A stretch of 64,000 bases of DNA from positions 160,001 to 224,000 of the forward strand of contig CAVRFW010000009.1 of the NCBI GenBank assembly GCA_963720565.1. Direction: 5' to 3'. Numbering within the stretch: position 1 is the stretch's first letter; the number at the start of each line of letters is the position of its first letter. Shown in pieces: positions 22,946 through 36,164 of this stretch. The position numbers and the translations under genes are program-made. The DNA comes from Candidatus Bathyarchaeota archaeon (GTDB lineage Archaea > Thermoproteota > Bathyarchaeia > Bathyarchaeales > Bathycorpusculaceae). The notes below the pieces were generated by a model, which was given only the letters and a program-made list of their open reading frames with translations, was not told the origin of the DNA and did no database searches.

Positions 22946-23290
22946 CTATCTTACCATTCTCTTGTTATCTTGCGAACTATGTGACCGCCTGAACGCGGTT
23001 CGCATTTGCATTTTCTTGTATTCCTCATAAGTCCACACATTCTCCGGATACAACTGCTTGAATCGCCTGAAAGGCAATCTCATGTCAATCTCCATTTGCT
23101 CGCTGAATTGACCCGGAACGTACTTGCGCCTGACACTGGAATAGCCCTTCACAGCATATTTGCTCTTTGAGGTGCTAGGGTTTGCATTCTTGATATTGTT
23201 CAAGGCCACGGCAATCATAGCAATAACGATGATAAAGATGACAAAGCCGGGAAAGAGGAGAGTTAAGTCCATGTTGATCTCTCCCTTCAT
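22946..23290 (-). CDS. Hypothetical single-TM protein
   Basis: N-terminal hydrophobic helix; overlaps the SPFH stop codon, so probably co-transcribed. Confidence 0.65.
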   Translation of the reverse strand: MKGEINMDLTLLFPGFVIFIIVIAMIAVALNNIKNANPSTSKSKYAVKGYSSVRRKYVPGQFSEQMEIDMRLPFRRFKQLYPENVWTYEEYKKMQMRTAFRRSHSSQDNKRMVR

Positions 23291-25141: not shown

Positions 25142-25666
25142 CTACTGTCGAACTTGCCTTCGGATTTTCAGCCTTGAACCAACGTATAGTCCGACCAAAC
25201 TTACGCCCATAATGATTAGTACGCTGAAAAACATGTTTCCTCGTCTAGACAAATCATAAAGAAACCATTCGGTTGTTGTCACCACAGTTCCATCAAACGA
25301 CCCCTTGGGCTTGTCTACTGCAAAAGGCACCCAGTCTGCAAGAGTAGGCTGAAACACCATAACTAGCAACTCATAGAATGCGCCAAGGACAATTATCCTC
25401 GACATAGCCTTTCTGCTCTCTTTTCGTATCTTTTCACCGAACAAGTAACCAACAATTAACATGCTGAGAAAGACAGCGATGAGCCCCGAACTGTAATAAG
25501 AATACATGAACACCCCCACGGTTTGAATCAACAATATCGACAAGGGAAACGCTATCAAAACCTGCAACACAGCATACAATGCCACAGAGGTTACGGTATC
25601 GCCAAACTTCACTCGGTCACCTCCTGCAAAACAAAGAACTGAAAGAAAATATATCCCAAAAACCAT
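25142..25666 (-). CDS. Hypothetical multi-pass membrane protein
   Basis: About four hydrophobic helices; real start probably GTG near 25612 after AGGTGA. Confidence 0.7.
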   Translation of the reverse strand: MVFGIYFLSVLCFAGGDRVKFGDTVTSVALYAVLQVLIAFPLSILLIQTVGVFMYSYYSSGLIAVFLSMLIVGYLFGEKIRKESRKAMSRIIVLGAFYELLVMVFQPTLADWVPFAVDKPKGSFDGTVVTTTEWFLYDLSRRGNMFFSVLIIMGVSLVGLYVGSRLKIRRQVRQ

Positions 25667-25727
25667 TTATGACTTGCGGAAGATACCAACCCAACAAGAC
25701 AACAACCAAAACGGGGAAGAAACGCTC

Positions 25728-26808
25728 ATGACCAAACATTACACTTACACTGACGCTGGCGTTGACCGTGAACAACGCCATGAATCAAAAAAGGCACTCA
25801 AAAATCTGCAGGACACCTACAGGTTCAGCCGTTATGGACCAGTAATGCACCTCCCTTACAGCAACATTTTCCCTTTTTCACAAGACAACTACCTTGACCT
25901 AACAATCGAGGGAGTCGGAACCAAAGTTCTCCTAGCACAACTCGCAGGCAAATACGATACAATCGGCATTGACGCCGTCGCCATGGCTGTAAACGACGTC
26001 ATCCGTTCAGGCGCAACGCCACTAGCTATCTCAGACAACATACACGCTCAAGCCAGCAACCCGCAACTTGTAAAAGAATGGCTAGAAGGCATAACCCAAG
26101 GCGCCAAGGAATCAGAATGCCCAATCGTCAGCGGAGAAATCGGCGACGTAGCAGAAATACTTAAAGGGCATAGCGGAAGGTGCGGGATTCGACATGATAG
26201 TCGCCGCCATAGGACAAGTCACCAAACACAAAATAATCACCGGAAACGGCGTACAACCAGGCGATCCCATAATCGGCTTGCCAAGTTCAGGCCTACACAG
26301 CAACGGCATAACCCTGGCAAGAAAAATCCTCCTCAAACAATGGGGCGGAAAATATGAACCACAAGACACACCCGATACACTCGACAGAGAAATAATTTAC
26401 GAGATGCTCAAACCCACACGAATCTACGTCAAACCCGTACTCAAAGCTGCAGAAGCAGCCAGAATCAAAGCAGCCGTACACATAACCGGCGACGGCTACC
26501 TAAAATTCAACAACATCACAAACTTCTCGCCGGGAATAGGCTTCGAATTCAACAACTTCAAACCTCAACCAATCTTCAAACTAATCCAGAAAACCGCACT
26601 CGAGCTGGGATTCACCATAACCGACGAAGAAATGTTCAGAACATTCAACATGGGCTGGGGCTTCGCCATAATCGTAGACAAAACAGACAAAGAAAAAACA
26701 ATAAACGCTCTCGAAAAAGCAGACGCAAATCCGGAACAAATCGGAACAGTAACAAACACTCAAGAAATAAGAATATCTCATGAAAACATGAGATTATTTC
26801 TGAAATAA
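25728..26808 (+). CDS. purM: AIR synthetase PurM, split by one apparent 1-nt insertion
   Basis: YTDAGVD, EGVGTK, AMAVND, SGE in frame 1; SSGLHSNG, HITGDG, TFNMGWG in frame 2. Extra G in AAAGGGCATA at about 26167. Confidence 0.9.
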
Positions 26809-26865: not shown

Positions 26866-27117
26866 ATGAAATACCGCGCAAAAATAGAAGTCAGCCTCAA
26901 ACCAGGCCACAGCGACCCTGAAGGGGAAACAACCTCAAGATTACTCAAAGAACTCGGCTACACCGTAGACTCCGTCAACGTAAGCAAAGTGTACGCCGTA
27001 ATTATTGAAAGCTACACTGCAGAGGATGCTAAGGCAAAAGCTGAGGAAATGGCAAAAAGACTTCTCGCAAACCCAACCAAAGACAATTATACAATCAGTG
27101 TTGGGGAGCTTAAATGA
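26866..27117 (+). CDS. purS: FGAM synthase subunit PurS
   Basis: LKPGHSDPEG and LLANP motifs. Confidence 0.95.
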   Translation: MKYRAKIEVSLKPGHSDPEGETTSRLLKELGYTVDSVNVSKVYAVIIESYTAEDAKAKAEEMAKRLLANPTKDNYTISVGELK

Positions 27118-29498
27118 CTCTAAGCAGCCTTTACATCCGCAGGAACACGCCTTTCAACCTGCACGATATTAACACTCAAGACGCCACAGATCAACAACTC
27201 GCAGAACTAAGCGGCGAACTCGGTCTAGGCCTAAATCTGCAAGAAATGAAGCAGGTTCAAGCCTACTTCAAAAAACAGAAACGAAACCCCACAGACTTAG
27301 AGCTCCAAACCATCGGACAAACATGGAGCGAACACTGCTGCCACAAAACCTTCAAAGGCAAAATCCTGCTGAATGGAAACGAAATCGACAGCCTCTTCAA
27401 AACCTACATTGCCCGAGCCACAAAGGAAATCAACCCACGATGGTGCATCAGCGTCTTCGAAGACAACGCTGGCATAATAAGCTTTGACAAAGGCTACGGC
27501 ATAGCTGCCAAAGTCGAAACTCACAACCACCCCTCCGCGGTTGAACCATTCGGAGGCGCAGCTACAGGAGTTGGAGGAGTAATCCGCGATGTACTCGGCG
27601 TCTGGGCGGATCCGATAGCTTGCACTGACGTTCTGGGTTTTGGGCCTCTAGACTACGATTACAAAAAACTGCCGTTAGGCATGAAACATCCCAAGTACGT
27701 TTACATGGGCGTCACCGCAGGTATAGGCGCCTACGGAAACAACATGGGAATACCAACCGTCAATGGAGCCATATACTTCGACGAGAGCTACACGGGCAAC
27801 GTCGTCGTGTACTGCGGCTGCATAGGACTGCTTCCGCTTAAGAAATTCAAAAAAACAGCAGAAGCTGGCCACATTATTCTTGTTGCAGGAGGAAAAACAG
27901 GCCGCGATGGTATCCACGGCGTAACATTCGCCAGCGCAGAACTCACAGAAAAATCCGAAGAAGTATCCAGACCAGCTGTGCAAATTGCAGACCCAATTGA
28001 AGAGGAAAAAGTGAAACGCGCGCTGATGAGGATTAGAGACCTTGGTCTCGGATCAGCCACAACCGACTTGGGAGGAGGAGGAATGTCCTCAGCCATCGGC
28101 GAAACAGCGGAAAGATTCGACTGCGGCGCTACAGTTGACCTGGACAAGGTTCCTCTGAAATATGCTGGACTGGCACCTTGGGAAATCTACATTTCAGAGT
28201 CTCAAGAAAGAATGCTCTTGACTGTTCCACCTGAAAATCTGGAAAAAGCCTTAGCGGTATTTGAAAAGGAGGATGTGGAAGTCACCGCGGTCGGAACACT
28301 CACCCGAGAAAGGCGCCTGCAGATTCGCTACCAAGGCGTCACGGTAGCGGACATGGATATGCAGTTCCTTTTTGAACCTGCAAAGAGCGTGAAAAACGCG
28401 ACAATTGAACCCGTCAACCTATCCGAACCTGATTTTCCTGAACCTTCAAATCTAACGGAAACGCTGCTGGAGTTGCTCTGCGCACCAAATATTGCCAGCA
28501 AAGAAAGCGTCGTCCGAACATACGATCACGAAGTTAAAGGTAATACGGCCTTAAAGCCTCTTCAAGGCGAACATGCAGGACCCAACGACGCTTCAATCAT
28601 AAAACCTCTCGACAACTCTTGGAAAGGCATTTCCATATCCTGCGGCATGAACCCGAACTACGGGAAAATCGACCCGTACTGGATGGCGGCCTCCGCCATA
28701 GACGAAGCAGTAAGAAACAACGTTGCCGTAGGCGGACGCAGAATAGCGCTGCTGGACAATTTTGTTTGGGGCAACCCTGAGAAACCTGAACGTTTAGGTT
28801 CACTTGTAAAGGCATGCGAGGCATGCTATGACGTTGCCACCGCTTACAAAACTCCCTTCATTTCTGGCAAAGACAGTCTATACAACGAATCGCCATTAGG
28901 GCCAGTCACGCCTACCCTGCTAATCACGGCCGTAGGTGTTGTACCAGACATAAGGTCAGCCGTATCGGTTGATCTGAAAAAACCGGACAACCTACTGTAC
29001 ATCGTAGGCAAGACGTCCAAAGAGCTTGGAGGCTCAGAATACTTCAAACTCAAAGGCTTCTTGGGTAAATCCGTGCCCAAAGTACGCGCGACGCAAGCAC
29101 GGAAAACCTACTATGCTTTGACAAAAGCTATTGGCGCAGGATGCGTAAAAGCCTGTCATGACCTATCCGAAGGCGGACTAGGAGTGGCAATCGCAGAGAT
29201 GGCAATAGCTGGAGGCTGGGGGGCAGAGATTGACCTGGCAAGAGTTCCCACTGACGCTTTGAAACGCGACGACTACACCTTGTTTTCAGAATCAAACAGC
29301 CGCTTCGTCGTTGAAGTTGCAGAGAAAGACCGGGAAACATTTGAAACATTCATGAAGGGCAGAACTCATGCTGAAATCGGCAGAGTCACCAAGAACCCGC
29401 GTCTAGTAATTGGAGGACTAAACCGATCAGTTATAGTGGACGCGGCGATTGCGGATTTGAATGCAAGTTGGAAACGGACTCTAAGCAGCGAGGCGTGA
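27114..29498 (+). CDS. purL: FGAM synthase subunit PurL
   Basis: WSEHCCHK, KVETHNHPSAVEPFGGAATGVGG, GRDGIHG, SESQERM, HDLSEGG. Confidence 0.97.
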   Translation: MTLSSLYIRRNTPFNLHDINTQDATDQQLAELSGELGLGLNLQEMKQVQAYFKKQKRNPTDLELQTIGQTWSEHCCHKTFKGKILLNGNEIDSLFKTYIARATKEINPRWCISVFEDNAGIISFDKGYGIAAKVETHNHPSAVEPFGGAATGVGGVIRDVLGVWADPIACTDVLGFGPLDYDYKKLPLGMKHPKYVYMGVTAGIGAYGNNMGIPTVNGAIYFDESYTGNVVVYCGCIGLLPLKKFKKTAEAGHIILVAGGKTGRDGIHGVTFASAELTEKSEEVSRPAVQIADPIEEEKVKRALMRIRDLGLGSATTDLGGGGMSSAIGETAERFDCGATVDLDKVPLKYAGLAPWEIYISESQERMLLTVPPENLEKALAVFEKEDVEVTAVGTLTRERRLQIRYQGVTVADMDMQFLFEPAKSVKNATIEPVNLSEPDFPEPSNLTETLLELLCAPNIASKESVVRTYDHEVKGNTALKPLQGEHAGPNDASIIKPLDNSWKGISISCGMNPNYGKIDPYWMAASAIDEAVRNNVAVGGRRIALLDNFVWGNPEKPERLGSLVKACEACYDVATAYKTPFISGKDSLYNESPLGPVTPTLLITAVGVVPDIRSAVSVDLKKPDNLLYIVGKTSKELGGSEYFKLKGFLGKSVPKVRATQARKTYYALTKAIGAGCVKACHDLSEGGLGVAIAEMAIAGGWGAEIDLARVPTDALKRDDYTLFSESNSRFVVEVAEKDRETFETFMKGRTHAEIGRVTKNPRLVIGGLNRSVIVDAAIADLNASWKRTLSSEA

Positions 29499-29501
29499 AT
29501 C

Positions 29502-30320
29502 ATGAAGCGAGAAGACATAAAAGTATGCGTTTTGCGTGTTGGCGGAACAAACTGTGACATGGAAACACAAAGGGCATTCCAAGAAGTAGGCGTTCAGGCT
29601 GAAACACTGCATTTGAATGAAATCCTCAAACAAGGAACTCTAATGAATTACCAGGTTCTGGTTTTTCCAGGAGGCTTTTCATACGGCGATTACGTGCGAG
29701 CAGGGGTCATCTTCGCACGAAGGCTCTCAGCCAGACTTGATAAAGAACTAAAAGCATTCGTCCAGGATAACCGGCCTATACTGGGAATATGTAATGGCTT
29801 TCAGATCATAGTCGAATACGGTTTGCTCCCGGGATTCAAAGGGGTAAGCCCAATCCCAGAGGCTACTCTCGCCACTAATATTCCCCAAGGTTACAATTGC
29901 CGTTGGCTCTACCTCAAGTACGAGAACAAAGGAAACTGCGTGTTCACAGGCAAAATCCCCCGAGGAAAAGTGCTCAGGATACCCGTCGCTCACTCAGAAG
30001 GCAGGTTTCTATTTCCGAGAGAAAAAGAACAACAACTTCTCGAAGAGTTATACGATAACGACATGATAGTGTTTCGATACTGCAACGAGAACGGCGAATA
30101 CGCGAACGGTCATTACCCGACAAACCCAAACGGCTCATTCCACGACATCGCTGGAATCTGCAACAAGGAAGGAACAATATTTGGCTTAATGCCGCACCCA
30201 GAAAGGGCATTGTACTGGTGGCAACAACCAGACTGGACGCGCCACGAATGCGTGCCCCAGTATGGAGATGGAAAGCTAATCTTTGAAAGTCTAGTTGACC
30301 ATTTAACCAAGAAACTCTAG
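29502..30320 (+). CDS. purQ: FGAM synthase glutaminase PurQ
   Basis: GTNCD, PGGFSYGD, GICNGFQ, MPHPER. Confidence 0.97.
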   Translation: MKREDIKVCVLRVGGTNCDMETQRAFQEVGVQAETLHLNEILKQGTLMNYQVLVFPGGFSYGDYVRAGVIFARRLSARLDKELKAFVQDNRPILGICNGFQIIVEYGLLPGFKGVSPIPEATLATNIPQGYNCRWLYLKYENKGNCVFTGKIPRGKVLRIPVAHSEGRFLFPREKEQQLLEELYDNDMIVFRYCNENGEYANGHYPTNPNGSFHDIAGICNKEGTIFGLMPHPERALYWWQQPDWTRHECVPQYGDGKLIFESLVDHLTKKL

Positions 30321-31217
30321 GTCCTTAGAGAAAGGCAGGCCTGTTCTGGCACCCATCTTCATCACGCATCTTGAAGCCACAAAGTTACCCAACTTACCGC
30401 ACTCTCCAAGGCTCTTGTCCTTCAACAACCCATATAGGAATCCCGCACAGAAAGCATCTCCAGCGCCGGTCGTATCAACAGCTTTCACTTTGAATGGTTC
30501 TATCAAAAGTTGCTCTCGACCATTCGTAACATAGCAGCCGGAACTGCCAAGCTTCACAGCCACTATTTTCACACCCTTACTAATAATGTGCTCAGCACCC
30601 TTGCTATAATTGGTCTCGCCAGTCAAGAGCTCAAGCTCCACAGAGTTAGGCATTAAAACATAAGTCCGTTTGATTATCGGTTCTAACCCGATAAGCCCCT
30701 TCCGCGCATACAAGGCTCCTGGGTCAAAGCTAACCTTGACACCTCGCGGAAGCGTTTCCAAAAGTCTCTTCTGTGTTTCGAAGGATTCTTCCCCTACGAA
30801 GGATGACAAATGCAAAAACCGTGTCTGAGAAGCGTATTCAACATCAATCTCGCTAAATCTTACCGTGTCATTAACACCTGAATTGATGTACAAAGCACGA
30901 GCGCCCTTTTTGTCAACGAACCCCATCACTAAACCGCTTTTTCCTTTCGTTGCGCGGATTACACCTTTGGCGTCGACTTTTTCCTTGTAGAAATCGTTTG
31001 CGAGCAATTCGCCTTCCTTGTCAGGACCCACTTTTCCGATGAAACCTGTTTTGCAGCCGAGTCTAGCGAGTCCAACTATGGCGTTTGCCGCTGAGCCCCC
31101 ACAAGTCTCTGTTGAATCAGTAATCCAGCTTTCCTCTTCCTGTTTGGCAAGCCTGTTGACTTTGAAAAGTCTATCCACGTTGAGCGCGCCAAACCCGACA
31201 ACGTCAAAGCGACTCAT
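30303..31217 (-). CDS. PfkB/ribokinase-family kinase (EhaT-like; nucleoside-kinase-like)
   Basis: GALNVD, GGSAAN, DTTGAGDAF signature; ATGA overlap with the ftr-like gene. Confidence 0.9.
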   Translation of the reverse strand: MSRFDVVGFGALNVDRLFKVNRLAKQEEESWITDSTETCGGSAANAIVGLARLGCKTGFIGKVGPDKEGELLANDFYKEKVDAKGVIRATKGKSGLVMGFVDKKGARALYINSGVNDTVRFSEIDVEYASQTRFLHLSSFVGEESFETQKRLLETLPRGVKVSFDPGALYARKGLIGLEPIIKRTYVLMPNSVELELLTGETNYSKGAEHIISKGVKIVAVKLGSSGCYVTNGREQLLIEPFKVKAVDTTGAGDAFCAGFLYGLLKDKSLGECGKLGNFVASRCVMKMGARTGLPFSKDLEFLG

Positions 31218-32143
31218 GTTAGCAGCTCACGTAGACTAATCTTGAATTCTCCCAATTTACCGCCGTAGTTGCCAGCGGAAACTCGAACCACACCGTCAAC
31301 GTTGATGACCGCTTCTATTCCATTCTTAGTAGCTGCTTTGACAGCTTCAATAGAAACCCCGTTTATTACAATCTCCGGGATATAACGCACATCTTCAGGG
31401 ACCAATAATGCTTTTCCCAACCCCGGCTTGAGACTTGGACAATACGTGTGATTTGTCGTGGGGCCTATTTCGGGATAACGCGTTTCAGGCTTTGAACCAG
31501 CCGAGCAAATATCAAACGGCGTAATAACCCCCTTCACTCTGTGTATAGCTTCTAAGGCCTTTTCGCCTGCTTTTCGCATTGCCTCTTTGGTTCTGCACAT
31601 GACCCAAAAGTTGGCGCCCATCACCCCACGTGAATAGCCCAAGTATCTTTCAATTACAAAGTCAGGAACCATAAGCGGCACCACAATCACCTCTCTACCA
31701 TGACGCGTTTCAACCCACTCATAACCATCACCGCAATGCCCCACCCGCGTCATCATATCCAGTTTTCCCTCAGCATAAGACAACGCATCAAAAACTGCAG
31801 TAAAGGGCTTAACCAAAATGTCCTGACGAATCCGATAGGAGAACTCTCTCTCAAACTTCCGTAAAGAATCAGCAAACCGTTTCTTCGGGTTTAGTCCACC
31901 CCAAAACTGCAGGACAGCACCTATGCGATGATCAGGAGTTTCTTCTTCACTCAGCCATTTTTCCACTCCGCCTTCAACTCTGCCAATAACAACAGAAGGC
32001 GTAGCAGTGGAGTCTTCAGCCGCATGACGCAATGTTCGCTCGTCATCAGCCGTTACGATGACCCTGCTGAAAATTCCTGCGAAAGCTTCAGCGTAAGTAT
32101 TCTCAACCTTATCAATATCTGATATTTTATCCAAGCCTCCCAA
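31214..32143 (-). CDS. Formylmethanofuran:H4MPT formyltransferase paralogue (Ftr-II/EhaS-like)
   Basis: ENTYAEAF, ETPD, GDGYE, GSK, TTNHTYCPSL, EIVING, SAGNYGGKLG Ftr motifs. Has RIRQDILVKPFT where canonical Ftr has a GQCVLT-type motif. Confidence 0.9.
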   Translation of the reverse strand: MGGLDKISDIDKVENTYAEAFAGIFSRVIVTADDERTLRHAAEDSTATPSVVIGRVEGGVEKWLSEEETPDHRIGAVLQFWGGLNPKKRFADSLRKFEREFSYRIRQDILVKPFTAVFDALSYAEGKLDMMTRVGHCGDGYEWVETRHGREVIVVPLMVPDFVIERYLGYSRGVMGANFWVMCRTKEAMRKAGEKALEAIHRVKGVITPFDICSAGSKPETRYPEIGPTTNHTYCPSLKPGLGKALLVPEDVRYIPEIVINGVSIEAVKAATKNGIEAVINVDGVVRVSAGNYGGKLGEFKISLRELLT

Positions 32144-33209
32144 CGGCTTCTCCCCTGACTTCCTTTCTAAACTTACTGCTTTCCTTAACCAACGTATCCA
32201 TATTTTGAGCTGTTACTATTTGAACCTTGGGAAGGACAGAAGAGTAAACAGACAGGTATTGTTCGAGTAACGGTTCGACCACTCCTGCTCGTTTAAGAGC
32301 ACGGCTATTCCAGTTTTCACACAACCTCAGAGTGTTTCTCTTCCCTTTCTTGAAGAAAAGACTGGCTATTACGGCAGTCACTATGCTGCTTTCAGACAAC
32401 ACCGCTATTTCCGAGTTTTCAACCGCGTAGCCATTGCCGTTAAAAGAGACAGTTAACCCGCCGTTTTCCTTCACAAGTTTGAAGGCTTCAACGTCTGTTA
32501 TGCTGTCTCCAACATACATAACGTCGCTCAAGTTCGCATGCAACTTTGCCACAGCATCTTCTATAGCTTCAGCCTTTTGGCTACCGCCGACCGTTTTGAC
32601 TTCCGAGAAGACTCTGCCAATGCTCATTTTCGGAATTTCACTCCAAAAAATCCTATCTAGCTGAGCGATTATCTCCTGATCCCTAGCTGAAAAATCTCCT
32701 ATCGCCTTTGCCCCTCTGGGAATACAAATCAATGGCGTTTGAACGATTTCATCTGCGATTTCTCGAAGCCTCCCCTTCTCTTTAGAGTTAACCGAGTACT
32801 TGTCAATACTCAATCTGGTGCAGTACGTGTTGGCATAGGGGAAATCTAACGCTTCGCAGAGAGCTTCTATATAGTGTTCGTAACTCGTACTGACGATAAA
32901 GGCACTAGCCATTGCTCTTACATGCTCCAGTGTGCTTTTGCTGTTGGCGATAAGCAACAGATTCTCAGCTGAGAATTCTCCGATTTGACCATCTGTTACG
33001 CCGTAGGCTTTCAGGAAGGGCAATATCAGTTTTAGCGTGCTGCCGGCAGAGTAGCCCTGCCTTTTAAGAACGTCAGCAAGCACATCATCATACTTGCTGA
33101 TGACCGTGAAGAGCTTATCGCCGTTTGGAACAAAATGAGCGGTTATCTCGAAGGCGTTATCGTTTCTGCTTATGGGTCCCTCACAGTCTGACATAAAAAC
33201 AGGTTTCAA
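32127..33209 (-). CDS. HAD-superfamily hydrolase (EhaR-like)
   Basis: Motif I variant SDCEGP, motif II VSTSY, motif III K, motif IV YVGDSITD, SFNGN. Its start overlaps the purD stop. Confidence 0.85.
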   Translation of the reverse strand: MKPVFMSDCEGPISRNDNAFEITAHFVPNGDKLFTVISKYDDVLADVLKRQGYSAGSTLKLILPFLKAYGVTDGQIGEFSAENLLLIANSKSTLEHVRAMASAFIVSTSYEHYIEALCEALDFPYANTYCTRLSIDKYSVNSKEKGRLREIADEIVQTPLICIPRGAKAIGDFSARDQEIIAQLDRIFWSEIPKMSIGRVFSEVKTVGGSQKAEAIEDAVAKLHANLSDVMYVGDSITDVEAFKLVKENGGLTVSFNGNGYAVENSEIAVLSESSIVTAVIASLFFKKGKRNTLRLCENWNSRALKRAGVVEPLLEQYLSVYSSVLPKVQIVTAQNMDTLVKESSKFRKEVRGEAVGRLG

Positions 33210-34621
33210 GGCTTACGCCTCAACTTCTCCATATGGCTCAAACTTTTAGCTATATGCTGTTTCGAAGCCACATCGCTTCTATTCCACAAAGCTCCACCTT
33301 CAATCGCCCTCGCAGCCTCCAACGAATTCTGCCGTGCTTCCTCAATGGTTTCGCCAACGCCTAAGACGCCAACAGCTCTGGATTTCAACGCGTAGTTCTT
33401 GCCGTTTCTGACTTCCATGGATCCCGGATAAACACGGATCTTTCCACGGCACTTACTAACGAGAGAATTCGCTTTGGAAAGATCGACTGGAGTGTCAACC
33501 TCAGCAGCATTCACCAGGTCTGGAAAAACATTCGAGTATCCTCCGTAACTTGGCGGAACCTTGTAGGTCAAGACGGTGGCGGCTTTCTCCATTTCCAAGC
33601 GGGTCAAATTTCCATCAATAATCTTGAGGCAAACGTCAACGAAATCGTCCTTTAAAACTGGAAGAATATTCATGATTTCAGGATCTCCAGGGCGACTATT
33701 GTTCTCGAGAACTTTGATGCCGGAGCCTGTATGCATGAAAGCCAAGTACAACGGAACACCCCTCAAGGCCGAATCATCGCTAATCTTAGCCTTCCATTCT
33801 TGGAAGATTCTTGTGGCAAGCGCTAACTCGTCTTCCCGATCGGATATGGTTAGAAAAGGCAGTTTGTCACTTGCATCTTTGTAGGAACCCATCCCGCCAG
33901 TGTTTGGTCCCTTGTCGTCGTCAAATGCTCGTTTGTAGTCTCGCGTGTCAGGTAATGGAATAAAATGCCTGCCGTCGCATAGAGCTTGAAAACTTGATTC
34001 TTCACCATCAACTTTCTCTTCAATAATCACGGTGCCATACTGGAAGTTCGACATGAAATGCTCGAAGAGTTGCTCCCGAGTAGCGAAGTGATCGCCCCAG
34101 ACTCCCACTCCCTTTCCAGCTGCTGGTTTATCAGGCTTTACAACCGCCTTGTTCTCAAGCTCATCAAGCCAACTATTAACCGCCTTCTTAACGTCGCCAA
34201 TTCCTTCATAGTCGTCGCGATTGAAAATCTTGAAACGCGGGTTAGCTTCCGGCGCTATCTCTTCGAAAAGCAAACGTTGCTGAACCTTGCTAATTTCTAT
34301 CGCGTACTCTTGAGTGGGGCATATGACAGGTATGCCTGTGCGTTTCTCAATTAGGTCTCGAACGCCCTCTATTATAGGCTTTTCCGGACCAACCATGGCA
34401 AAATCGATTCTGTCCTTATTATCCTCAGCGAACTTGCAGATATCTTCGATATTCAAATCCGGTATAACCGCGTGTTTGAACGCTTTCTCCACGTTGAAAG
34501 GATTGCGTTGCTTGTCTGCGACGTAAAGTTCAACTTTGTGGTTCGGGCTTCTGGCGAAGGCATCAACTATTGCTGCCTCGCGTGCCCCGTATGAAACGAC
34601 TAGTATGCCTACTCTGTCCAT
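33206..34621 (-). CDS. purD: Phosphoribosylamine-glycine ligase PurD (divergent)
   Basis: GAREAA, VGPE, GKGV, IEEKVDGEE, DYKRAFDDDKGPNTGGMG, ENNSRPGDPE. Confidence 0.9.
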   Translation of the reverse strand: MDRVGILVVSYGAREAAIVDAFARSPNHKVELYVADKQRNPFNVEKAFKHAVIPDLNIEDICKFAEDNKDRIDFAMVGPEKPIIEGVRDLIEKRTGIPVICPTQEYAIEISKVQQRLLFEEIAPEANPRFKIFNRDDYEGIGDVKKAVNSWLDELENKAVVKPDKPAAGKGVGVWGDHFATREQLFEHFMSNFQYGTVIIEEKVDGEESSFQALCDGRHFIPLPDTRDYKRAFDDDKGPNTGGMGSYKDASDKLPFLTISDREDELALATRIFQEWKAKISDDSALRGVPLYLAFMHTGSGIKVLENNSRPGDPEIMNILPVLKDDFVDVCLKIIDGNLTRLEMEKAATVLTYKVPPSYGGYSNVFPDLVNAAEVDTPVDLSKANSLVSKCRGKIRVYPGSMEVRNGKNYALKSRAVGVLGVGETIEEARQNSLEAARAIEGGALWNRSDVASKQHIAKSLSHMEKLRRKP

Positions 34622-34682
34622 GACAGATCGCCTGTTTACATAGAGAATTAACTGGAACGCTTAATTTGTTTTTTCGCTTGGT

Positions 34683-36164
34683 CTATTGGGAATCTTCGTG
34701 TTGCTCGTAGATTCTGCTTTTCTCTTCGTAACCGTTGAGGAATTTCTGTTTCATTTCGTCAGCAATCTCCTGCGCTAAGGGCGTAGGATACTTGCCCGTG
34801 ATGCATGCCAGACACAATTCATCCTGCGTCTGGCCTGTTGCGCGAACCAATCCGTCTATTGACTGGTAGCAAACCGCATCTGCACCAATGATTCTGGCAA
34901 TTTCATCTGGACTATGCTTCGAACCGATCAATTGCCCGTAAGTAGCCATGTCTATGCCATAAAAGCACGGTCCAATAATACGTGGAAAAGTAACGAACAT
35001 GTAGACTTTCTTAGCACCTGCTTTACGAATTTTTTCTATTACTACCTTAGTTGTGTCGCCACGGACTATGCTGTCCTCGGTTAGTATCACGCGTTTCCCA
35101 TCAACTTTTGGACCTAAAATGTTTACTTTGCGGTCTATCGTATTGAACCTCTCTTCGTTGAGGAGAATGAAAGCTCTTTCGGTCACGTACCGATGCCTGC
35201 GAGACGCCCGTTCCCACCTGAGTCCAGACTCTTCATGAACTCCCATTGCAGGGTCATCTCCAGTCTCAGGCACCGAAAGTACCACGTCCGCATCTTTCGC
35301 GATTTCAGGATACTCATGCACGATGTTTCTTCCGAAGTCTTCACGGATTTCATAAACGTATTTTCCGTTAAACCGCGAGTCAGGTCTAGAGAAATATGCA
35401 TACTCAAATGCGCAAAACGCCCTGCGTGGGTTATTGATTATCTGTGTTCGTTTGAACCCTTTTTCTGAAACCGTTACGAGTTCGCCTGGCTCCAATTCAA
35501 AATCTCTTGTGAAATTGTTAATGTCCAAACTCACAGTCTCCGACGAAAAAGCAAAAGTAGTTCCGTCTTGGCTGCGCCCAGCGCATAAGGGTTTAATGCC
35601 ATGGGGATCCTTGAAAGCGAAAAAGTCACCGGTTCCAGTTATGCCGGCCACAGAGAATGCTCCATCGACACTCTGCATACAAGCTCCAACAGCTGCCGTC
35701 AGGTCTTTTCCCTTCTCAAATTCAAGTAACAGTTTATGGCATAGCAAGTCTGAATCGCAACTGCAAACAAAATCTTGGAAGTTATCATTAATTTCATGTT
35801 TAAGTTGAAATGTGTTAACTATGTTGCCGTTGAACGAGAGTGCAATCTTCAAGTTTCCCATCGAGGCTAAAACTGGCTGGGTCCCCTGAATTATACTCAC
35901 ATCGTCACATTTGCCAGATGTTGTGTATCTGATGTTTCCGATGCCGATGTGACCAGGCAAGCGCTCGAACCATTCATGCAGAGCACTAGTTTTCAGTTTT
36001 GGGACTAGGTCGAGGTTTCTGTAAACGTGAAATTTCTCTTCGTTGAAAGTGAGGAAACCATGTGACTGATGTCCCCGGTGGTTTTGGGCGCGAAGACCCC
36101 AGTAAACGTGTGGGAAGACAGATTGCTTTTCAAAGTTTATTGCACCGAACACGCCACAGCCTAT
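34683..36164 (-). CDS. purF: Amidophosphoribosyltransferase PurF (start extended to a probable ATA to include catalytic Cys)
   Basis: CGVFG N-terminus, HRG, RYTTSG, NGNI, CAFEYAYFSRPDS, EDSIVRGDT, PCFYGID, CLAC. Confidence 0.93.
   Translation of the reverse strand: MGCGVFGAINFEKQSVFPHVYWGLRAQNHRGHQSHGFLTFNEEKFHVYRNLDLVPKLKTSALHEWFERLPGHIGIGNIRYTTSGKCDDVSIIQGTQPVLASMGNLKIALSFNGNIVNTFQLKHEINDNFQDFVCSCDSDLLCHKLLLEFEKGKDLTAAVGACMQSVDGAFSVAGITGTGDFFAFKDPHGIKPLCAGRSQDGTTFAFSSETVSLDINNFTRDFELEPGELVTVSEKGFKRTQIINNPRRAFCAFEYAYFSRPDSRFNGKYVYEIREDFGRNIVHEYPEIAKDADVVLSVPETGDDPAMGVHEESGLRWERASRRHRYVTERAFILLNEERFNTIDRKVNILGPKVDGKRVILTEDSIVRGDTTKVVIEKIRKAGAKKVYMFVTFPRIIGPCFYGIDMATYGQLIGSKHSPDEIARIIGADAVCYQSIDGLVRATGQTQDELCLACITGKYPTPLAQEIADEMKQKFLNGYEEKSRIYEQHEDSQ

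Follow-up and report, generated by a model that had tools for sequence, protein, structure and literature searches.

The window analyzed here is a 64,000-nucleotide stretch of contig CAVRFW010000009.1 (positions 160,001 to 224,000) from a Candidatus Bathyarchaeota archaeon of the class Bathyarchaeia, whose genome is assembled in 13 contigs and is 88.8% complete. Two purine operons converge within it, and three adjoining genes in one of them, which together probably supply the third step of purine synthesis, are the subject of this work. The minus-strand operon opens with purF (34683..36152), encoding the amidophosphoribosyltransferase of purine step 1 (GATase_7 and GATase_6 matches; 315.8 bits on TIGR01134, below the cut-off of 350). 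It is followed by purD (33206..34621), encoding a somewhat divergent glycinamide ribonucleotide (GAR) synthetase of 471 amino acids for step 2 (GARS_A, GARS_N, and GARS_C; 254.2 bits on TIGR00877, cut-off 288). Behind purD lies the trio: a gene for a 360-amino-acid EhaR-type HAD-fold enzyme (32127..33209; weak Pfam and NCBIfam HAD matches of ∼25 bits), proposed to be a GAR (nucleotide) phosphatase or phosphotransferase; a gene for Ftr2, an EhaS-type paralogue of the formyltransferase Ftr with 309 amino acids (31214..32143; FTR and FTR_C domains and the NF002554 family), proposed as the step 3 formyltransferase; and pfkB, encoding an EhaT-type PfkB kinase of the ribokinase family with 304 amino acids (30303..31217), proposed to restore the 5′-phosphate. 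The plus-strand operon consists of purM (25674..26808, in two frames; AIRS on 25674-26357 and AIRS_C on 26194-26808), the aminoimidazole ribonucleotide synthetase of step 5; purS (26866..27117; PF02700, 74 bits); purL (27114..29498; AIRS, AIRS_C, and FGAR-AT_linker), the formylglycinamidine ribonucleotide synthase of step 4, which consumes formylglycinamide ribonucleotide (FGAR); and purQ (29502..30320; GATase_5, 226 bits), the glutaminase subunit of that synthase.

The open reading frames (ORFs) and the profile scans agree with the two convergent operons, purF-purD-HAD-Ftr2-pfkB and purM-purS-purL-purQ, that an earlier, sequence-only reading of the window had described. That reading had also taken the trio frames to overlap, which the junction letters bear out at two places: the purD stop and the HAD start have TTGA in common (33206-33209), and the Ftr2 stop and the pfkB start have ATGA in common (31214-31217). 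HAD and Ftr2 overlap as well (32127-32143 in that reading), but by how much is uncertain, as the exact Ftr2 start codon is ambiguous; the HAD stop TAA occupies 32127-32129, and Ftr2 starts either with the TTG at 32143, for an overlap of 17 nucleotides, or with the following TTG at 32134, for one of 8. Tail to tail, pfkB and purQ overlap by 18 nucleotides (30303-30320). A single frameshift near 26161-26189 breaks purM: the intact PurM of one related locus (L007) matches frames 3 and 1 by tblastn, and the two halves lie in a single frame in related loci. The break reflects either a mistake in the assembly or a frameshift of recent origin. No hydrogenase gene was found in Pfam scans of the window proteins, again as the earlier reading had it. 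In a wetland metatranscriptome, short contigs that are 90 to 99% alike cover parts of pfkB, HAD, and purF, which is not proof of transcription or cotranscription of this operon.

The enzyme for step 3, the formylation of GAR to FGAR, had been reported as missing from this cluster, and profile searches of the whole genome for PurN and PurT came back without a credible match. The PurN model (TIGR00639) had no match at E ≤ 1 in this genome, whose incompleteness means that absence cannot be proved, and the PurT model (TIGR01142) gave only weak matches to ATP-grasp proteins. We ruled out a hidden PurT among the latter, as the best of them scored 53 bits and lay inside a 1,096-amino-acid ORF. Since an incomplete genome cannot prove absence, the comparative tests described below weigh more. 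The genome carries two tandem PurP genes, and PurH was not found in it. The formylation of 5-aminoimidazole-4-carboxamide ribonucleotide (AICAR) is thus covered by formate-dependent PurP, which leaves GAR formylation as the sole purine step without a recognizable enzyme. A role for Ftr2 in AICAR formylation is unlikely, given the two PurP copies and the position of the trio after purD. The genome also encodes FwdA (815 bits) and, as anticipated, a canonical Ftr elsewhere: a second Ftr on contig C5 scores 399 bits on the family model, higher than the window copy. With FwdA and canonical Ftr present, formyl-methanofuran and formyl-tetrahydromethanopterin (formyl-H4MPT) can be made.

We examined the three proteins individually. 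The HAD protein matches PDB entry 1Y8A (AF1437 of Archaeoglobus fulgidus, a “hypothetical protein”) over residues 4 to 291 (3e-27). AF1437 is the only solved relative, and the two proteins have the motifs D-x-E-G-P, STSY, and GDSI(S/T)D in common. An alignment of 12 archaeal and bacterial members contains 47 invariant positions across two domains, including D8-x-E10-G-P, S107-T108-S109, K212, and G234-D235-S236-I237-T238-D239, so that motifs I to IV of HAD phosphatases are all represented; the members also have an F-N-x-N motif, which reads N-G-N in 11 of 12, together with R...RG.....LG at the C terminus. As the invariant motifs are kept, the HAD protein is predicted to be an active enzyme. 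Its last 13 residues (window 32127-32180) read R-K-x-V-R-G-x-x-x-G-x-L-G, with five positions invariant from Bathyarchaeia to bacteria.

Ftr2 scores 143.5 bits on PF01913, 184.2 bits on PF02741, and 335.5 bits on NF002554, above the cut-off of 297, and has no match to PF00551. It is 36% identical to the canonical Ftr of the same genome and matches the Ftr structure 1M5S at 3e-49. E257 aligns with the catalytic glutamate of characterized enzymes (Glu245 of Methanopyrus kandleri Ftr and Glu252 of FhcD), whose role is stated in the part of Hemmann 2019 available to us. We used the 19 substrate-contact residues listed in that source (SI Fig. S8C), the 1M5S alignment, and 170 Ftr2-clade and 38 Ftr1-clade sequences to compare the active sites. 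The window protein has 8 identical residues, 6 conservative changes, and 5 nonconservative changes at these positions. Across the Ftr2 clade, the catalytic glutamate, Q94, F197, and S206 are kept in all 170 sequences, and F124 has become cysteine in all 170 (phenylalanine in 34 of the 38 Ftr1 sequences); further switches are T98 to valine (163/170), S204 to alanine (165/170), and F123 to histidine (141/170). The pattern indicates that the catalytic machinery is retained and that part of a substrate pocket is remodeled, the source list assigning no residues to individual substrates. A quick maximum-likelihood tree placed Ftr2 in a clade of its own, as had been expected: 13 rows with a Shimodaira-Hasegawa-like approximate likelihood ratio test (SH-aLRT) value of 93, against a 40-row clade (99) holding the Bathyarchaeia Ftr1 copies.

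The kinase matches PF00294 with 177 bits over residues 5 to 295. Its nearest structures are ribokinases (∼1e-28), and it scores 172.4 bits on the ribokinase equivalog TIGR02152, below the cut-off of 299.65. In eight orthologues, the T-G-A-G-D motif (D254; GAGD being the anion-hole/catalytic motif of the family), N13, D15, G41, and N45 are invariant; we take N13, D15, G41, N45, and the aspartate of GAGD to have their counterparts among the ribose-diol and catalytic residues known from ribokinase and from nucleoside kinases. These conserved residues would fit a 5′-kinase for a ribofuranoside.

To see how widely the arrangement recurs, we compared the 80 closest genome loci, in which Ftr2 is 73 to 84% identical to the window protein and which almost all carry the title Bathyarchaeota or Bathyarchaeia. 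Among loci with enough flanking sequence, Ftr2 lies between HAD and pfkB in 59 of 68, purD is upstream in 61 of 70, and purQ/purL converge from downstream in 59 of 65. The same array thus recurs in most of the related loci, indicating that the window arrangement is not due to chance and that the clustering with pur genes, a point which the sequence-only reading had put up for testing, is not peculiar to one genome. Ftr2 stands alone in five loci (L038, L040, L063, L082, and L084). The Ftr2-alone genomes G303 to G305 each have two Ftr copies, a divergent HAD elsewhere (29 to 34% identical), and an orthologous kinase elsewhere (41 to 47%), which shows that the three genes persist when unlinked.

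Some observations on these loci stand apart from the comparison. The lone-Ftr2 group (e.g., L038 and L087:8647-9744) carries the titles Euryarchaeota, Acidiferrales, or Bathyarchaeia, its Ftr2 being 74 to 77% identical to that of the window. In the one neighborhood of the group that was scanned (L038, 9986-12232, of G304), a GMP-synthase subunit comes after the lone Ftr2; the divergent HAD of G304 lies between rpS6e and an amine-oxidase-like gene. Bathyarchaeia-type Ftr2 (75 to 82% identical) also occurs in metagenome-assembled genomes (MAGs) titled Desulfobacterales, Thorarchaeota, and Acidiferrales (L010, L014, and L084), where the contigs probably reflect binning contamination or mislabeling.

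We then searched one set of 301 genomes of the phylum, 44 of them from the class of the window (its own genome included) and 257 others, for HAD, PurN, and PurT. The HAD marker was present in 40 of the 44 Bathyarchaeia and in none of the 257 others. None of the 40 HAD-positive Bathyarchaeia had a PurT match at E ≤ 1e-40 or a PurN match above the curated cut-off; over the whole sample, PurN matches occurred in 95 genomes and PurT matches in 103. Three of the four Bathyarchaeia that lack HAD (G246, G002, and G117) carry PurT, with neither Ftr2 nor a trio-type kinase. In G246, which has no Ftr at all, PurT occupies the slot of the trio in a purQ-purL-purF-purF′-purD-PurT operon. G002 and G117, members of one genus, have canonical Ftr only and a divergent purF-purF′-purD cluster, with a PurT-like gene at a distance of 15 kb; G029, whose genus is sister to theirs within the family, carries Ftr in two copies along with the order purF-purD-HAD-Ftr2-pfkB. 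The pur genes of G246 (L091:3493-12136) and G002 (L092:84-4931) are 29 to 40% identical to those of the window, and their adjacent purF and purF′ before purD resemble the PurF/PurF′ pair of Crenarchaeota described in the available part of Brown 2011.

Two further genomes, G069 and G037, which belong to one genus, are the only members of the class with a weak match to the PurN model (72 to 75 bits on TIGR00639, cut-off 150). They have canonical Ftr and no Ftr2, and a 278-amino-acid Formyl_trans_N protein follows directly after purF-purD. HAD and the kinase remain on the same contig within 18 kb, HAD ∼12 kb and the kinase ∼16 kb away from this protein; in G069, the formyltransferase, HAD, and kinase genes lie at L131:1798-2634, L130:7262-8320, and L130:3342-4292, all on the minus strand, and the same set is found in G037. 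The kinase of both genomes adjoins FolD and a PurH-type AICAR transformylase. In a folate-using Bathyarchaeia lineage, a PurN-superfamily enzyme has thus taken the place of Ftr2 in the same slot, while HAD and the kinase were kept. That HAD and PfkB stay when Ftr2 is swapped for a PurN-like enzyme favors the phosphatase and the kinase being part of the chemistry. A CRISPR-Cas cluster lies between the parts of this triad in G069 and G037.

A corresponding module occurs in bacteria. Our bacterial sample comprised 301 genomes from the phylum of G301, a MAG titled Desulfobacterales that includes a contaminant Bathyarchaeal contig; its sole HAD match is an 88-amino-acid contaminant fragment on a 1.2-kb contig. 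Full-length HAD homologues, 33 to 49% identical, were found in 69 of the other 300 genomes. PurN at E ≤ 1e-30 was present in 155 genomes of the sample (140 above the cut-off) and PurT at E ≤ 1e-60 in 3. The overlap of HAD with PurN or PurT was zero, with PurN in 0 of 69 HAD-positive genomes versus 154 of 231 others (nominal P = 5e-27 by Fisher's test, which is overstated because related genomes are not independent). The anticorrelation of the trio with PurN and PurT, which the earlier reading had only predicted, therefore appeared as complementarity in two separate phylum samples.

In 11 of 20 bacterial loci, tblastn located pfkB upstream of HAD with a gap of ∼0.9 kb. The gap encodes a Formyl_trans_N protein of 265 to 289 amino acids in all three loci scanned with Pfam, which thereby confirmed a triad of pfkB, PurN-like formyltransferase, and EhaR-like HAD (L107:1580-4701, L113:6171-9036, and L118:5954-9746); the same Formyl_trans_N protein abuts HAD in L106. 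Purine genes adjoin some of these loci. The order in L118 is purM-pfkB-formyltransferase-HAD, L117 has the same order by tblastn, and in L124, purD and HAD are ∼770 bp apart, separated by a single gene on the opposite strand. As a co-occurrence test, we compared the 20 HAD-positive genomes with fetched loci with the first 20 PurN-positive genomes as controls. Both the PurN-like formyltransferase and the trio-type kinase were found in 20 of 20 HAD-positive genomes versus 0 of 20 PurN-positive genomes, the formyltransferase being unlinked from HAD in 7, and an Ftr-family gene was found in 0 of the 20 HAD-positive genomes.

The bacterial formyltransferases are 38 to 50% identical to the G069 protein, and in the PurN-like triad proteins an N-x-H motif and an aspartate are invariant, which we presume to match the catalytic residues of PurN. 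The bacterial kinase is 36 to 37% identical to the window pfkB product (172 to 183 bits), compared with 26% (57 bits) for the other PfkB of the window genome, and by these scores the two are predicted to be orthologous. In small bacterial genomes (e.g., G409, G562, G335, G374, and G473), HAD adjoins a rhomboid protease and an SDH-type serine protease, and the other two genes are elsewhere.

Taken together, in-silico comparison (the gap, the linkage, the complementarity, and the separate Ftr2 clade) supports the trio as a third GAR-formylation system, much as the sequence-only reading had proposed: a HAD-Ftr2-PfkB module probably supplies purine step 3, GAR to FGAR, in organisms without PurN and PurT. 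An entirely different account would be that an unrelated, unrecognized enzyme performs step 3, or that purines are taken up, with the distribution of the trio following from shared ancestry and ecology. The genomes compared include MAGs, the window purM carries a frameshift, and the pathway of one Bathyarchaeia genome, G021, seems incomplete, all of which would suit such an account. We nevertheless regard it as highly improbable, because most of the 80 loci have kept the remaining pur genes intact, a bacterial phylum independently shows the same pattern, and PurT replaces the trio in the same slot after purD.

The bacterial and G069 data also bear on how the module would act. Two formyltransferases unlike in fold and cofactor have HAD and the kinase in common, and both of these are lost in genomes with PurN or PurT, so that HAD and the kinase should act on the acceptor side, at its ribose-5-phosphate end, and not on the donor side. 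We infer the reaction, the formyl donor, and the order of the steps from these associations. In the proposed scheme, the HAD enzyme would take the 5′-phosphate off GAR, Ftr2 (or the PurN-like formyltransferase) would formylate glycinamide riboside, and the kinase would use ATP to rephosphorylate formylglycinamide riboside to FGAR, committed to PurL. Ftr2 would draw its formyl group most likely from the methanofuran/H4MPT C1 pool made with FwdA and canonical Ftr. The net cost would be one ATP, equal to that of PurT, and where the donor has a low potential (N5-formyl-H4MPT or formyl-methanofuran), this expense of ATP would render the step irreversible. This riboside detour is a serious candidate for the actual mechanism, although it falls somewhat short of being probable.

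One alternative is a direct formylation of GAR, in the manner of PurN, by Ftr2 or the PurN-like protein, with HAD and PfkB as helpers that recapture dephosphorylated intermediates or supply ribose phosphate. The formyltransferases themselves would allow it, with the catalytic glutamate and 8 of 19 contact residues kept in Ftr2 and with N-x-H and the aspartate kept in the PurN-like protein. Some lineages, too, have the three genes scattered. Salmonella STM4066 (PDB 1TYY) is an aminoimidazole riboside kinase of the PfkB family that salvages a purine-pathway riboside; its structure matches the trio kinase at 3e-12, and a salvage kinase for the riboside of a purine intermediate would thus have a precedent. 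Helpers, however, would be expected to vary or to be lost, and yet HAD and the kinase accompany the PurN-like protein in 20 of 20 genomes and ordinary PurN in 0 of 20, vanish along with Ftr2 in PurT-bearing Bathyarchaeia, and, in the case of HAD, are highly conserved at 47 invariant positions. Direct formylation with helpers therefore seems unlikely to us.

For a broader view of Ftr2 neighborhoods, we seeded a metagenome scan with four distant Ftr2-clade proteins and obtained 80 loci, 44 of which had room on both sides. HAD and pfkB flank Ftr2 in 10 of the 44, mostly with purD; in locus L189, Ftr2-HAD-PfkB occurs without pur genes. No eha genes were found in the metagenome loci, and no hydrogenase family was present among the 62 neighbor proteins scanned. 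Clustering of Ftr2 with pur genes is common but not universal.

The resemblance of the trio to methanogen genes raises a further alternative. The gene order EhaR-EhaS-EhaT at the end of the Methanothermobacter eha operon is presumably the same as that of the window trio, and the three families are the same, while the window trio sits in a purine operon with no hydrogenase genes nearby. The family identity that the earlier reading had assigned found support: near homologues of the window HAD bear the Joint Genome Institute name “energy-converting hydrogenase A subunit R,” and in the accessible part of Kaster 2011, EhaS is given as Ftr-like and EhaT as ribokinase-like, both being cotranscribed with eha in Methanothermobacter. 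The trio might accordingly serve a nonpurine role, such as a methanofuran or methanopterin cofactor step or an Eha-linked function, with its place in the pur operon being incidental. The cotranscription of the three genes with eha hydrogenase genes is in line with such a role, as are the 30 of 44 distant metagenome loci in which Ftr2 has no pur neighbors. Against it, HAD and the kinase occur in bacteria without an Ftr-family gene (0/20), beside purM or purD in some loci; the window holds no hydrogenase genes; and such a role would leave unexplained why, in two phyla, the trio and PurN or PurT are complementary. We consider a nonpurine role very improbable.

The literature is consistent with a step 3 function in other archaea. 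Brown 2011, in the part available, lists purN and purT as not found in two Archaeoglobi, four methanogens of the Methanothermobacter/Methanobrevibacter/Methanosphaera group, and M. kandleri. The available part of Chadwick 2022 reports Ftr2 in the anaerobic methanotrophs ANME-1 and ANME-2a/b, Archaeoglobales, M. kandleri, and M. marburgensis and describes ANME-1, Archaeoglobales, and Methanobacteriales as lacking both PurN and PurT. Ftr2 is thus recorded in just those groups for which Brown 2011 misses the two enzymes, with ANME-1 in addition. The two accounts agree that some archaeal lineages have no recognizable purN or purT, as the sequence-only reading had stated. In a full-text literature search, with subscription journals outside its reach, we found no paper assigning Ftr2/EhaS, EhaR, or EhaT to purine synthesis and none with glycinamide-riboside pathway intermediates.

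Several points weigh against the assignment of GAR formylation to the module or against the proposed chemistry. Asp at nucleophile+2 is the general acid/base of HAD phosphatases and mutases, but this position is a glutamate (E10) in 12 of 12 HAD members and in AF1437, and the HAD protein may therefore be something other than a plain phosphatase. If a phosphatase works next to a kinase, the two enzymes have to tell the formylated form from the unformylated one. With a folate-type donor, moreover, no ATP input is needed thermodynamically, and the scheme does not account for a phosphatase/kinase bracket there. Distribution data also contain exceptions. Among the 231 HAD-negative bacterial genomes, 77 are likewise without a PurN or PurT match at the thresholds used, so a missing match is not rare in that sample. 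G021, which is 98% complete, lacks HAD, PurN, and PurT and has Ftr1 only; it carries purS-purL-purQ, and purD was not found in it with the query used. Ftr2 occurs without HAD and pfkB in 30 of the 44 metagenome loci, next to varied neighbors (GcvH, purC 2.5 kb away, YcaO-TfuA, and others), and ANME-2a/2b are a possible exception in having both Ftr2 and PurN, according to the portion of Chadwick 2022 at hand. Lastly, related genomes are not independent, so that the counts overstate the number of evolutionary events, with about three independent switches within Bathyarchaeia, and the Ftr tree came from a quick search, with the Ftr2 group read off that same tree.

A more general form of the riboside scheme can be put forward, although we hold it to be doubtful. 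The module would be a donor-agnostic, two-domain, riboside-level machine and a third GAR-formylation system, with fixed HAD and PfkB components and an interchangeable formyltransferase that would be of the Ftr type where C1 units come from methanofuran/H4MPT and PurN-like where they come from folate. In its boldest form, the D-x-E HAD would be a phosphotransferase that moves the 5′-phosphate from GAR to formylglycinamide riboside via an aspartyl-phosphate, with ATP and the kinase merely priming and repairing the cycle and no net use of ATP. Eha functions in anaplerotic ferredoxin reduction, and in methanogens, with the module placed last in the eha operon, the withdrawal of formyl groups for purine C8 would be coupled to ferredoxin reduction by Eha.

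The closest known systems each resemble the module in part. Ftr2 has the same two-lobe fold and length as Ftr (EC 2.3.1.101; PDB 1FTR/2FHJ, 1M5H, and 1M5S; FhcD 6S6Y) and keeps its catalytic glutamate along with a number of the contact residues (Q, N, F, G, S, and Y), but it is linked to pur genes instead of C1 catabolism, and its proposed acceptor is glycinamide riboside or ribotide instead of methanofuran or H4MPT. For PurN (10-formyl-tetrahydrofolate:GAR transformylase, EC 2.1.2.2), the proposed net reaction and the operon slot are the same. Ftr2 is unrelated to PurN in fold, whereas the triad formyltransferase of the G069 lineage and the bacteria is a distant PurN-superfamily protein, which differs in its low score on PF00551 (45 to 67 bits), in its N-terminal motif, and in always occurring with HAD and the kinase. 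PurT (EC 6.3.1.21), which is formate and ATP dependent, is likewise a solution for folate-poor organisms and costs one ATP per FGAR, as would the proposed scheme; it takes the slot of the trio after purD in G246, and in the Bathyarchaeia sample PurT and the trio exclude each other. PurT is, however, a single ATP-grasp enzyme using free formate and has no homology to the trio proteins. Aminoimidazole riboside kinase offers a precedent for the step proposed for the trio kinase, although the match is distant (3e-12 versus ∼1e-28 for ribokinases) and the enzyme belongs to salvage and not to the main pathway.

The formylation of GAR is central to a pathway that is universal, and its missing enzyme in Archaeoglobi, Methanobacteriales, Methanopyrus, and ANME-1 has been acknowledged since at least 2011 in the parts of Brown 2011 and Chadwick 2022 that we could consult. 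If the proposed function is correct, a third, nonhomologous solution closes that gap, and the long-unexplained methanogen genes ehaR, ehaS, and ehaT gain a function. The module would then feed C1 units directly from the methanofuran/H4MPT pool into the synthesis of nucleotides, and a detour of the main pathway via nucleosides would represent a new pathway logic. Thousands of genes that currently carry the names Ftr, ribokinase, or HAD hydrolase would receive a corrected annotation, and the metabolism of Bathyarchaeia and of many sulfate-reducer-type bacteria would be modeled differently. The bacterial form of the module makes the idea directly testable in Escherichia coli.

Outside the two purine operons, the minus-strand ORFs at 25142-25666 and 22946-23290, which adjoin purM and an SPFH/NfeD pair, gave no Pfam match. 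The remainder of the window consists of ordinary genes, such as those of the his operon.

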